From NCBI GenBank assembly GCA_951406725.2, contig OX597817.1, forward strand, positions 163,246,001 through 163,310,000: a stretch of 64,000 bases of DNA. Reading direction: 5' to 3'. Position numbers and translations under genes: made by a program. Positions within the stretch are counted from its first letter, which is position 1. Every line of letters starts with the position of its first letter. Below are positions 10,586 to 57,720 of the stretch, one piece after another. The notes under the pieces were generated by a model. The model did not search any database. It had not been told where the DNA came from and saw nothing but the letters and a program-made list of their open reading frames with translations. The DNA is from Octopus vulgaris (lineage: Eukaryota).

Positions 10586-10765
10586 AAAGGGCTTAGTAAA
10601 ATAAATTACTTTGCCGCATACTGAATTTATTTTACTAAGCCCTTTTATTTTACTAAGCCCTTTTATATAATGTAATAATTTGAATTCGCCTTAAATGGTC
10701 CCTTTGCATACTGAATACTTGGTGAAATTGATTAATTAATTAATTTTACCCTCAATTGTTGAAAT
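10586..10765. mobile_element. Short fold-back element in (TA)n
   Basis: Arms AAAGGGCTTAGTAAAATAAATT 10586-10607 / 10624-10645 (right arm partly duplicated); terminal hairpin GGTGAAATTG...TAATTTTACC 10721-10750; (TA)n both sides. Confidence 0.6.
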
Positions 10766-10821
10766 TATATATATATATATATATATATATATATATATAT
10801 ATGTAAGGCGATATATATATA

Positions 10822-11150
10822 GGCATAGGAGTGGCTGTGTGGTAAGTAGCTTGCTTACGAACCACATGGTTCCGGGTTCAGTCCCACTGCGTGGCACCTT
10901 GAGCAAGTGTCTTCTACTATAGCCTCGGGCCGACCAACGCCTTGTGAGTGGATTTGGTAGGCGGAAACTGAAAGCTCGTCGTATATATGTATATATATAT
11001 TTGTTTGTGTGTCTGTTTTTGTCCCCCCAAAATCGCTTGACAACCGATGCTGATGTGTTTACGTACCCGTAACTTAACGGCTCGGCAAAAGAGACCGATA
11101 GAATAAGTACTAGGCTTCCAAAGAATAAGTCCTGGGGTCGACAAAAGGCG
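10822..11150 (+). mobile_element. SINE family B
   Basis: GGAGTGGCTGTGTGGTAAG (A box), GGTTCAGTCCC (B box), internal TA/TG microsatellite. Confidence 0.9.
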
Positions 11151-11362
11151 GATGGCCTGGGCTTTAGAGAAGTAGATGAAGGTGGTTTGTACAATGTCAA
11201 TCAATTAACTGTTTGGGAAATGTAGTGCCTTGAGTTCAAATTAAGTTATTAGAGAGTTTCTTAATGGTAATGTAGTTCTTAGCGTAAACCACCTCTGAAA
11301 AACATTCTCGGGCCTTTCATTAATGTTATATATCATCATATTGATAATATTAGTCGTGTCCA

Positions 11363-11760
11363 AGGCGGCAAGTTGGCAGAATCATTTGCAAGTTGGGCAA
11401 AATGCTTAACGGCATTTCGTCCGTCTTCATTCTGAGCTCAAATTTCGCCGAGGTAGACTTTGCCGTTCATGCTTTTGGGGTCGATAAATTAAGTACCAGT
11501 CAGATACTGGGCTCGATGTAATCGCCTGTTACACTCCTCAAAATTACTGGCTTTGTGCCAAAATTCGAAACCTATATTAGTCATGTTCATGGCGGCAAGC
11601 TGGCAAAATGTTTCACGTTCTGAGTTCAAATTCTGCCCAGGTCGACTTTACCTTTCATTCTTCCTGTGTCTATAAAAGACGTGCCAGTTCAGCACTGGGG
11701 TGGATGTAATCGACTTAACATCTCAACCAAAATTTCTGGCCTTGTGCTAAAATTTGATAT
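11363..11760 (+). mobile_element. Two adjacent SINE family A copies
   Basis: Heads at about 11363 and 11590, each ending ...CTTGTGC(C/T)AAAATT.GA; the preceding ATATTAGTC(G/A)TGT(C/T)CA context is also repeated. Confidence 0.8.
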
Positions 11761-11779
11761 CAGTATTAGTAGTTTCCAT

Positions 11780-54783: not shown

Positions 54784-54975
54784 GTGGAGGCGCAATGGCC
54801 CAGTGATTAGGGCAGCGGACTTGCGGTCGTAAGAACGCGGTTTCGATACCCAAACCGGGGATTGTGAGTGTTTATTGAGCAAAAACACCTAAGCTCCACG
54901 GGGCTCTGGCGGGAGGGGTGGTGACCCCCGCTGTATTCTTTCACCTCAACTTTCTCTCACTCTTTCTTCCTACTT
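54784..54975 (+). mobile_element. SINE family C, 3'-truncated
   Basis: GTGGAGGCGCAATGGCCCAGTGATTAGGGCAGCGGAC...AACTTTCTCTCACTCTT. Confidence 0.85.
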
Positions 54976-56712
54976 CTGCCACAAAGCAGAGGAACCATGA
55001 TGTAACGCACTATGGTGTGGTAAACTTTCAGAAATCTAGTCTAGATTGCGAATCCTCTGTACCCCAGGATGGTTCAGCTCTCCACCCGTTAAAAGCCACC
55101 GTTTACGGTATGAGGATAACAACTTAGCTTTCGCACCCGTGCAACCGCCGGTCTATCGCGTGTGGTGGGGAGATCTCCAAGTCGCCACACGCATTTTTAG
55201 TAGCTTAGAGTAGGCTCGAATTAGAGATTATTCTTTGTGGCAAATGGCGTGAGTCCTGATTGGACGAAGAAGAACAACAACAGCAGCAGTCACAGCAGCA
55301 ATAGTCACAGCAGCAACAGTCACAACAGCAGCAGCCACCGCAACAGAAGCCACCGCAGTCGCAGCAGCAGAAGCAGCAACAATATATGTCGGTTTGCAAA
55401 TGTCTTTATTATTTTTATTGTACTTAAAGTATTCTATATTATATTTCTAAATGCGCACTCACGTAGACACACATACACGCGTACATAGACGTATGCACAC
55501 ACATACACAAATCTACGCACGCGCACACGTATATACACACATATATCATTTAATATTTCCTAGAAAACCAAACAGGAAAAAAATGTATTTCTTCAGATTA
55601 ATTTTCACTGAAATTCGTTGAGAAATTAAGAACTACTAGAGTAAAAACATACACAATATTGTAGATATAAATGATAGAAATAGATCATAAACAACGTCGT
55701 GTAGATAAAAACTTACAGTACAGCTTAATTAAAACTTAAGAGAGATGTACGATTGTATTGTGAGATGGTAAAGTTAGTAAGATTAGTGTACTGAGCGATC
55801 ATATGCCAATGTCGCCTACAGAGAAGGCCTACAGTACATTATAGGACGATGGTATACAATTCACCGAAGGAAAAAAAGATAGACAAAGAGGGAGTAGGAG
55901 AGAGGGAGAAAGAGAAAGAGTGAAAATAGGAGAAGATAGGCAATATTGTATTTAGAAATGGTATAGAATACAGCCTTGAGAGAATATACTCAGTACAACA
56001 CATAGAGATGGTGTAAAATGCAGCCTAGGGAGAGGATGGGCATTAATTTATGAAGGGATGAGAATATATTCTGTACATACGGGGAGAATGTAAAAAGTTC
56101 AGTATAGAGGCTATAAATACACTGTACTTGCGTGAAGAGATTATACATAGTACAGTATAGAGAGATTAGAACACTACAATACATAACAATATACGGAGCT
56201 TATCTACTGTAGTATAAGAGAGACGAGTGTTACACAGAGAAGTACTGTGTAAAAGAAAATAGAAGATACATAGTGTTGTATAAGGAACAGTTGCTTAGTA
56301 TTGTGTGTTATTATACTTACAGTATTATAATACACGGTGTTATATGGAGAAATGACACATAATAGTATACTGGTGGACGATGGTGATGGTGAACCCTCTC
56401 TTCGCTTCTACGGATGAGAGTTCAGCAAGACACGGCCTGTGGAAAACGACCACCCCCCTATGACCACCTGTGTGTTGGGTCAAAGCTGAAAACCTCCAAT
56501 AACATCCTTTATTTGACATTGTCACCCCTTTTCCTATCGCTATTGGACTTAATAAAGAAAATGTTATGGTATTACTACTGGTGCCTTGGTTTGCTGAACA
56601 CCAGCGCAATGAATATTGTTGAAGTGGATATCGTTTGTGCAGAGCCAGTCCCAGGCTTTCAACTCTCGAACGGGTATTGGTCTAGTGTACCAAGTGCCAA
56701 GAGCCCAGTAAT

Positions 56713-56975
56713 TGTGGGGGTACATGGCCGAGTGGTTAGAGTAACGGACTTGCGGTCAAGGGATCGCGGGTTCGAATATCAGACCGGGCGATGTGTGTGT
56801 TTATGAGCGAAACACCTAAGCTCCACGCGAACTTCTGCTGACTCTTTCGCCACAACTTTCTCTCACTCTTTAAGCTCACCTGCGACAGACGGCGTCCCGT
56901 CTAGGTGGGGGAACCTATACGCTAAGGAAACCGGAGAAACCGACCCTTATGAGCCAGGCATGGCTCGAGAAGGTA
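56713..56975 (+). mobile_element. SINE family C head with third tail type
   Basis: Head ATGGCCGAGTGGTTAGAG...; tail GCGACAGACGGCGTCCCGTC...GAAACCG...CCTTATGAG shared with 6510-6715. Confidence 0.8.
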
Positions 56976-57388
56976 AAAAAAAAGCCCAGTAATTATCAGG
57001 ATGCAGTATTTGTAAGGAGTTACCTTCTCTTAGGTGAACAGTTAAAGAACTGAAGGACCTCATCGGCCTTGGGTCTTTTGGGGTATCTGCAAGAAACCTT
57101 TTTCCGGAGGCAATACGGGTGGATAATACATATTACTATCAGATATACGATTTAGTGTTTTATAGTGGGAAGCATGTAGGTAGTATTGTGTGATGGCAAG
57201 TGATACATTGCTCATGGGATAAAAACCAGTGGCATATAGATAGAAGAGATAAGGTATTGCACAGTGAGAAGGGATATAACATTGTACACTGAGATACAAT
57301 ATTGTACAAAGAAAATAAACATATGAAATACCATCTCTGAGGAAGAGAAGATCCACATTACAGAGAAATGACAAATACTATGTATAAA

Positions 57389-57720
57389 CTGTTGTGTCTG
57401 GGGAGGGTCATTTTCTTTTTGTGCCTTATAATGTAACACACTCACCGGTAAAATTTCCACTTATTTCTTATTTTTATTTTCCTAAAATGTTCGTTGCGTC
57501 TTGCAACCTTTTCAATAGTCTTGGCTTTTGAAAATGTTGCAAGACGCAACGAAAATTTTAGGAAAATAAAAATAAGAAATAAGTGGAAATTTTACCGTTG
57601 AGTGTGTTATATTATAAGGCACAAACAGAAAATGACTCTCCCCAGACACAACAGAATATGCTTCAACACACGAACTCATATAAAGAATCTTGCAAAACAA
57701 ATCCAAAAGCGAAACTATGT
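57389..57720. mobile_element. Fold-back PLE-like element (same family as 23084-23323)
   Basis: 127-bp inverted arms 57389-57515 / 57528-57654 with 12-bp spacer; tail 57655-57718 on the plus copy only. Confidence 0.75.

Follow-up and report, generated by a model that had tools for sequence, protein, structure and literature searches.

Predicted hammerhead retrozymes of Octopus vulgaris share the two-ended fold-back insertion anatomy of Penelope-like elements

Penelope-like elements (PLEs) that carry an endonuclease (EN+) are described as partial tandems with an inverted 5'-truncated copy and a tail at one end; Naiads prefer (TA)n, Neptunes are biased towards microsatellites, hammerhead ribozymes lie near the 3' end and rotifer members generate target-site duplications (TSDs) of 8-10 bp (Craig et al. 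2021, PMC8557442; Arkhipova et al. 2013, PMC3846280). How PLEs make such inverted, tailed insertions is stated as open in PMC8557442. Metazoan non-LTR retrozymes, which lack long terminal repeats (LTRs), a primer-binding site and a polypurine tract, are non-coding, low-GC tandem units with a type I hammerhead that co-occur with PLEs (Cervera and de la Pena 2020, PMC7229834; Li et al. 2026, bioRxiv 10.64898/2026.07.22.740005). The enzyme that moves them in animals is also stated as open in these two papers, where PLEs are proposed as mobilisers from co-occurrence and from homology with the PLE terminal repeat (pLTR). We analysed a window of 64,000 nucleotides of Octopus vulgaris (assembly GCA_951406725.2, contig OX597817.1, positions 163,246,001 to 163,310,000 of the forward strand; coordinates below are those of the window) that holds eight fold-back elements, some of them predicted retrozymes and others ends of coding PLEs. 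We consider it likely that both kinds were inserted by one PLE-type reaction, which copies one RNA twice, from two fixed sites, onto both strands of a TA-rich cut.

The window is 35% GC and dense in microsatellites and short repeats; the host genome is 2.8 Gb. An initial annotation had described eight fold-backs, each with two inverted arms of which only one continues into a tail, and self-BLAST of the window together with reading of the printed sequence confirmed this layout and its coordinates. The elements are named E1 (10586), E2 (23084), E3 (28317), E4 (30975), E5 (41571), E6 (44477), E7 (47401) and E8 (57389). The inverted copy plus tail is in itself already published for PLEs (PMC8557442, PMC3846280). 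The annotation had also placed all eight in a single family; they fall instead into two classes. E1, E5, E6 and E7, with further related families, form what we call the clan, and the conserved motifs of the clan are absent from E2, E3, E4 and E8. The genome was searched with each element and 40 candidates were scored out of 40-2156 per search, so that the copy numbers given here are samples and not censuses.

The outer ends of the arms map to a pair of fixed sites, A and B, which differ between the two arms of an insertion and lie on one RNA unit. E5 (41571..41912, plus strand) has the B end of its inverted arm at 41571 and its A end at about 41912; E1 (10586..10765, plus strand) comprises a short inverted arm ending at B on the left and a sense arm ending at A on the right; E7 (47399..48093, minus strand) has its A end at about 47399 on the minus-strand arm and its B end at about 48093 on the plus-strand arm; and E6 (44460..44752, plus strand) is an older fold-back of the same kind. 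Unit lengths are 491 nt for E5, 558 nt for E1, 510-538 nt for the E7 subfamilies and about 536 nt for E6. Elsewhere in the genome these units form head-to-tail arrays of up to about nine units, E5 arrays reaching 4.6 kb. Site A runs directly into unit sequence leading back to the hammerhead, and the units are therefore circularly permuted; E6 was considered as the end of a coding element, which was ruled out because its unit loops back on itself. Many E1 and E5 copies match at 98-100%, from which we conclude that these two families are very young, and E6 copies match at 78-89%. The units have no coding capacity, the longest stop-free frame in a dimer being 59-104 aa. E5, E6 and E7 had been regarded as otherwise unalignable, but their full units proved to be collinear distant homologues by global alignment: z reaches 3.2-6.4 in five of the six pairs among the four families, the remaining pair (E5 with E1) giving z = 0.

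Hammerhead pieces had been reported in five members. Such pieces are indeed present, and the only complete motif inside the window is that of E7 (type I, 47860..47939, plus strand, with a long stem II and a palindromic minimal stem III); E5 retains the 3' part, with stem III and the cut site, at the inner end of its inverted arm (41702..41715, minus strand). In the units, a complete type I descriptor with a short palindromic stem III was found for all four families, and in 0/200 shuffles of each of the three units shuffled. Rfam RF00163 matches the E7 hammerhead at 28.2 bits (E 2.8e-5) and E5 at 22 bits (E 0.015), both below the gathering score of 34; a scan of the whole window returned 217 matches, nearly all of the 150 listed being microRNA-like noise on microsatellites. 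Since tandem non-coding units with a type I hammerhead motif define non-LTR retrozymes, E1, E5, E6 and E7 are, judging from their sequence, fragments of non-LTR retrozymes of one divergent clan with a predicted ribozyme motif. The E5 unit is covered by contigs from four runs that may be RNA; these give neither strand nor ends nor level and carry no weight as evidence here. About eight further clan families were met by chance in the flanks of the loci fetched (L031, L034, L072, L075, L102, L123, L167, L278 and L295), and the clan is therefore much larger than the four families of the window. One locus (L292:2700-3500) is a mosaic of E5, E7 and TA-like sequence that resembles an assembly consensus error.

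The clan families share an RNA scaffold that consists, in order, of a conserved 9-mer, a long-range stem P1 that encloses both a hairpin P2 and site B, a conserved short joint, a hairpin P3 and, 6-19 nt further, site A. The motif set noticed in the initial annotation (9-mer, small hairpin, GGCC-box and a GGT...ACC hairpin) was recovered in this order three times in the window (41762-41900 and 44613-44753 on the plus strand, 47558-47410 on the minus strand) and in 0/200 block shuffles, and the GGT...ACC hairpin is, as also noted there, present in E1. In E5, P1 extends over 41767..41855 (plus strand; 41767-41774 pairs with 41848-41855) and encloses P2 and site B at about 41807, and P3 (41862..41898, plus strand) ends 14 nt before site A. 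P3 lies at 10721..10750 in E1 (plus strand, 15 nt before site A), at 44725-44751 in E6 (plus strand, with the 9-mer at 44613 and the GGCC-box at 44718) and at 47457-47412 on the minus-strand arm of E7. The E5 scaffold stretch folds with z = -5.5. The suggestion that these are conserved RNA signals acting in cis, for which covariation had been named as the check, gains from compensatory changes in P1 across 12 families and subfamilies. The 5' and 3' strands of P1 from the same family form 64/84 Watson-Crick pairs (four near-duplicate rows omitted) versus a mean of 3.4/7 in cross pairings, 0/200,000 permutations reach the observed pairing score, and columns 3-5 switch among T-A, C-G, G-C and A-T. 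In P3 the three closing pairs are kept while the interior is wholly changed between families, and MAFFT alone failed to align it across families. Because sites A and B both sit shortly after a hairpin, they may be two copies of one start signal.

The two ends of an insertion are complementary in a nearly strict manner. In the E5 family, 40/43 fold-backs are A/B and three combine A with a shorter non-standard end, none being A/A or B/B; in the E1 family 25/26 are A/B and one is A/A, the flanks of the latter being themselves an inverted duplication. Taken together, 65/69 retrozyme fold-backs are A/B, one is A/A and none is B/B. On the E5 unit, B is at position 131 or so and A at about 237. Single-armed insertions were also encountered, six for E5 and seven for E1. 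The same rule applies to coding elements: for a PLE family with a 1312-aa open reading frame (ORF), 18/18 scorable inverted insertions are A/B (19 were fetched, one having an end beyond the range), where an independent choice of ends would give this result with a probability of 0.5^18. These insertions were picked by their reverse transcriptase (RT) region and the sample is thus unbiased on ends. In a Neptune-type family, 3/3 scorable insertions are A/B, its other loci being unscorable. The tail corresponds to the distance between A and B, which is about 100 nt in the clan, 58 nt in the active coding family and 35-42 nt in E4 and the Neptune-type family.

Both RNA 3' ends point outward into TA tracts, which flank both ends in 42/43 E5 and 23/26 E1 fold-backs, in agreement with the preference for TA microsatellites proposed in the initial annotation. 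As a feature of all the elements, TA tracts at the ends hold for the clan but not for E2 and E8, which have no long TA tracts and carry TSDs of 11-12 bp. The annotation had also set the elements apart from MITEs (miniature inverted-repeat transposable elements), and had named terminal inverted repeats (TIRs) with TSDs as what would speak otherwise. No TIRs were found; ends A and B differ and the inverted part varies in length. TSDs of 10-14 bp are seen in the E2/E8 family, which is a PLE end, with 8/17 fold-backs versus 7/272 mismatched pairs. A duplicated flank word occurs in 1/69 E1 and E5 fold-backs, where a TSD would be hidden by the TA tracts. The single case is the E1 copy of the window, where an 8-mer to the left of the left TA tract (10512-10519) recurs past the right one (10803-10810); such a duplication would imply that TA was gained during or after insertion. 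That the RT synthesises the TA tracts de novo was considered and is not supported, with 1/69 among E5 and E1 fold-backs, 0/18 among coding fold-backs and a single E7 hit that turned out to be internal sequence.

Both arms appear to derive from one template. At diagnostic sites, masked for TA-extension artefacts, the two arms of an insertion disagree in 7/366 cases for E5 versus 3508/14182 (25%) between insertions, and in 0/86 cases for E1 versus 432/873 (49%). Either the A or the B arm may be the longer one, and up to about eight units can be copied in one direction. The inverted repeat is of variable length and absent from the unit itself, with scattered 5' ends. Non-nested arms, each with more than 10 nt missing from the other, are seen in 15/42 E5 insertions (the 42 including two ends at position 108) and 12/25 E1 insertions of the A/B type. 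Arm junctions mostly show an overlap of 0-7 nt, with gaps of up to 36 nt. When loci selected by overall size are omitted, inner ends lie within 15 nt of the predicted ribozyme cut in 7/40 cases (1.15 expected, P=2e-4) and 5/38 cases (0.93 expected, P=0.003) for E5 and E1 respectively, which is 5-6 times expectation.

E2, E3 and E8 are tied to coding PLEs, and E4 weakly. E2 (23084..23321, minus strand) and E8 (57389..57714, plus strand) are 5'-truncated fold-back ends of one coding family, the A arm being on the left and the B arm on the right in E2 (with an 11-bp TSD) and the reverse in E8, which has a tail of about 60 nt and a TSD of 11-12 bp (57378-57388 and 57715-57725). Over their last 100 nt, both can be aligned with the 3' end of the 1312-aa family, and one E8 locus carries an RT fragment 62% identical to it. 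The 1312-aa ORF combines an RT with a GIY-YIG-type C-terminus; look-alike proteins carry RVT_1, HTH_animal and GIY-YIG domains, and a direct Pfam scan of the ORF itself returned no family. All 150 scored matches of this family (150/150) are 97-100% identical. The copy at L353:2263-6198 belongs to a very active PLE whose ORF includes a long stretch rich in Asn, a feature also described for rotifer Penelopes; the RT start sites are located within the 5' end of the ORF that follows in tandem. E3 (28317..28648, minus strand) is probably the decayed 3' end of an old coding PLE: its relatives have a GIY-YIG-like C-terminus upstream (read by eye in several copies) and a hammerhead with a long stem II, and all 150 hits are decayed, with a longest open frame of 311 aa and no Pfam match. 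E3-like ends have a rough hairpin-to-end geometry in common with the clan, and no intact ORF turned up among them. E4 (30980..31311, plus strand) is a fold-back 3' end. Its tail is about 35 nt long, and it contains a piece of a hammerhead variant of the U3-A8 kind, a core known from PLEs (PMC4209133); a GIY-YIG fragment lies 1.2 kb upstream in 1/25 loci, and E4 is probably the end of a longer PLE. Two further PLE families (L236 and L242) encode proteins of 846 and 784 aa with RTs 60% identical, and we take them to be of the Neptune type from their domain order. Dozens of copies of the L236 family match at 99-100%, and its 3' untranslated region is microsatellite-like and 2 kb long. Retrozymes and coding PLEs are often nested in one another's terminal TA tracts, giving insertion clusters (L075, L293, L295, L299, L344, L387).

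The initial annotation regarded the elements as PLE-derived and proposed to look for the motifs at the 3' ends of autonomous PLEs. The PLE-type origin of the anatomy stands. A derivation by sequence is unproven, because the clan motifs are missing from the coding-PLE 3' ends examined. We infer that the clan is PLE-mobilised since clan and PLEs have the insertion anatomy in common.

The proposed reaction would proceed as follows. Array transcripts would undergo self-cleavage, which the palindromic stem III suggests to take place in dimers, and yield linear as well as circular RNAs; minimal stems of this kind are thought to require folding of a dimer (PMC4209133). A probably dimeric PLE protein with RT and GIY-YIG domains would bind the scaffold formed by P1, P2, B, P3 and A and nick both strands about 12 bp apart, and the end structure suggests that one nick primes at A and the other at B. 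Each cDNA would head for the 5' end of the RNA and either stop at random, stop at the ribozyme-cut end or read through several units. The two cDNA ends would then join by short microhomology into a head-to-head fold-back. The templates would comprise linear RNAs that have been cut, with run-off at the cut, as well as circles or uncut multimers, giving arrays. An in vitro study of a lizard PLE (Poseidon of Anolis, Frangieh et al. 2024, PMC11167929) has described nicking and extension of both strands, AT-rich targets, two internal RNA start sites that define the tail and a predicted dimer.

Several observations weigh against this reading. The anchors of P1 were set by eye, the families compared are related and the E1 row is that of a copy with a damaged junction. 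Detection of B/B insertions is disfavoured in the E1 searches and in the first E5 searches, whose queries included the tail. Rfam reported no hammerhead in E1 or E6, and its E5 and E7 matches are sub-gathering. Most arms cross the predicted cut (62/69 and 28/33 entries into the 15-nt zone), the pile-up of inner ends near it could stem from RNA structure or microhomology and not from cleavage, and the lizard study, in the part available, saw no role for ribozyme cleavage in vitro (PMC11167929). Non-nested arms could also come from later one-sided deletions at the palindrome centre. The clan motifs were seen at none of the coding-PLE 3' ends in an incomplete survey that covered the two Neptune-type, the 1312-aa and the decayed E3 families and the published octopus Naiads. 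Finally, up to 14 substitutions separate the units within some E5 arrays (L294), unlike a fresh copy of a single circle.

Other processes were weighed on the same data. For rotifer Penelopes, self-priming on an antisense template has been proposed (PMC3846280): a single cDNA or antisense RNA would snap back and copy itself, with the endonuclease trimming the second arm at a fixed site. Identical arm haplotypes would then come at no cost, and the nested arms of 27/42 E5 and 13/25 E1 insertions are compatible with such a process. It is nevertheless unlikely, as the arms of the other 15/42 and 12/25 insertions are non-nested by 12-191 nt, as the longer arm may be A or B so that either site would be needed both as start and as stop, as inner ends are enriched at a cut which exists only on the sense RNA, and as in vitro both sites work as starts on sense RNA (PMC11167929). 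The simplest model, and in our best reading the one favoured over antisense self-priming, is twin target-primed reverse transcription of one sense RNA.

We find it quite improbable that a non-PLE enzyme, such as that of a long interspersed element (LINE) or a Helitron/Helentron-like rolling-circle transposase, mobilises the clan with the hammerhead as a passenger, even though no sequence-matched PLE partner exists among the families examined and non-autonomous elements of the Helentron type are brought to mind by the tandem arrays, by the asymmetry of the inverted repeats and by a 3' hairpin that lies a few bases from the end. The inverted repeat is no constant feature of the termini, coding elements with RT and GIY-YIG domains display the same A/B anatomy in this genome, a poly(A) tail is absent and truncations follow the ribozyme site. 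A non-autonomous Helitron or Helentron has by definition a 5' end that is fixed and, within its unit, subterminal inverted repeats; this identity was ruled out by the scattered 5' ends, with no subterminal repeat pair within the unit. Secondary DNA rearrangement or assembly artefacts that affect dispersed repeats at fragile (TA)n tracts do occur here (the palindrome at 51180-51642, the inverted-duplicated flanks of L297 and the L292 mosaic). Those cases are however symmetric and centred on a TA tract, while the elements have their TA tracts outside, and the asymmetric fixed ends in 65/69 fold-backs and the TSDs of the family without TA tracts leave very little probability to this explanation, which the fixed A/B ends largely refute.

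Returning to twin priming of one sense RNA, a further-reaching version can be put forward tentatively, with somewhat less belief for it than against it: at least ten divergent hammerhead RNA circles may load both subunits of the PLE RT dimer onto the same circle via one conserved two-hairpin scaffold, each subunit priming one strand from a fixed site of its own and being able to roll round several times. Units within an array are alike, with 0 differences among four E7 units versus a median of 17.5 between arrays and, for E5, a mean of 2.5 in the longest array versus a median of 6 between arrays. Either a circle or a multimer may be the template, the L294 array being divergent within itself.

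The clan resembles the metazoan retrozymes described so far in its non-coding, low-GC tandem units with a type I hammerhead, in having no LTR, primer-binding site or polypurine tract and in co-occurring with PLEs. Its units are longer than the 170-400 nt of PMC7229834 and fall within the range of 51-972 nt of 10.64898/2026.07.22.740005. In their available parts, these two papers sample no cephalopods and describe no fold-back insertions, two fixed ends, TA targeting or covarying 3' scaffold; circular RNA and self-cleavage have been demonstrated for their retrozymes, whereas the clan is described here from genomic sequence. At the ends of the coding families covered by our incomplete survey, no sequence homology was found between the clan and the PLE terminal repeat. 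E2/E8 and probably E3 are ends of EN+ PLEs, from which the clan differs by having no ORF and a tail of about 100 nt and not 30-40 nt (PMC8557442; PMC3846280). The tail of EN+ PLEs is published as optional or often at one end, whereas the A/B rule is near-strict here. The published octopus Naiad 3' ends, as far as given in PMC8557442, are without the clan motifs. In the portion of the Poseidon study at hand, no difference of start site between strands and no need of cleavage are reported and inverted insertions are not treated (PMC11167929), unlike the present insertions, where the site differs between the two strands and inner ends show an enrichment at the cut.

The clan elements are short, non-coding, hairpin-forming and TA-associated like MITEs and fold-back DNA transposons, and differ from TIR elements by their unlike end sequences and variable inverted part. 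In twin priming of L1 elements, the second cDNA starts from the other DNA strand and leads to a 5' inversion joined by microhomology; its start is opportunistic and the cDNAs barely overlap. Here, in contrast, the two start sites are fixed, and since the cDNAs are both copies of one stretch, the product is a true inverted duplication.

Other repeats of the window are distinct from the A/B elements. At 51180-51642, a near-perfect palindrome of a common short repeat surrounds a TA tract of 146 nt, with arms of 205 nt that are 100% complementary; similar TA-centred inverted duplications are present at L297 (whole flanks) and L093, and such palindromes stem either from repair by fold-back at TA tracts or from an artefact of the assembly. 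Older inverted repeats, 67-74% complementary, lie at 17808-17997, 8978-9221 and 6531-6905, without flanking TA tracts in the two stretches read, and are possibly decayed MITEs. Near an E5 copy, from L042:5313 onward, an open frame of 503 aa resembles by eye an exon of a G-protein-coupled receptor.

Beyond the published PLE anatomy, this analysis adds the A/B rule, the evidence for a single template and the covarying scaffold. The literature searched, which included little of the subscription journals and did not extend to Repbase, yielded no paper that deals with retrozymes of cephalopods, with this scaffold or with twin priming by PLEs, and the main text of a 2026 octopus repeat annotation, in its available part, does not mention ribozymes (PMC13282606). 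Thousands of such fold-backs are easily mistaken for MITEs or microRNA-like hairpins. The very young families offer a countable genomic readout of complementary A/B ends, of one template for both arms and of run-off at the ribozyme cut, and link retrozymes to the PLE machinery by mechanism and not by co-occurrence. As two families of intact, near-identical PLE ORFs share the genome with the scaffold and its mapped sites, an in vitro test is straightforward. If RNA circles do load the RT dimer, this would provide a general origin for the inverted and tailed insertions of PLEs, direct mechanistic evidence that animal retrozymes are parasites of PLEs, and a compact RNA tag with which cargo could be directed to two-ended integration at TA targets.

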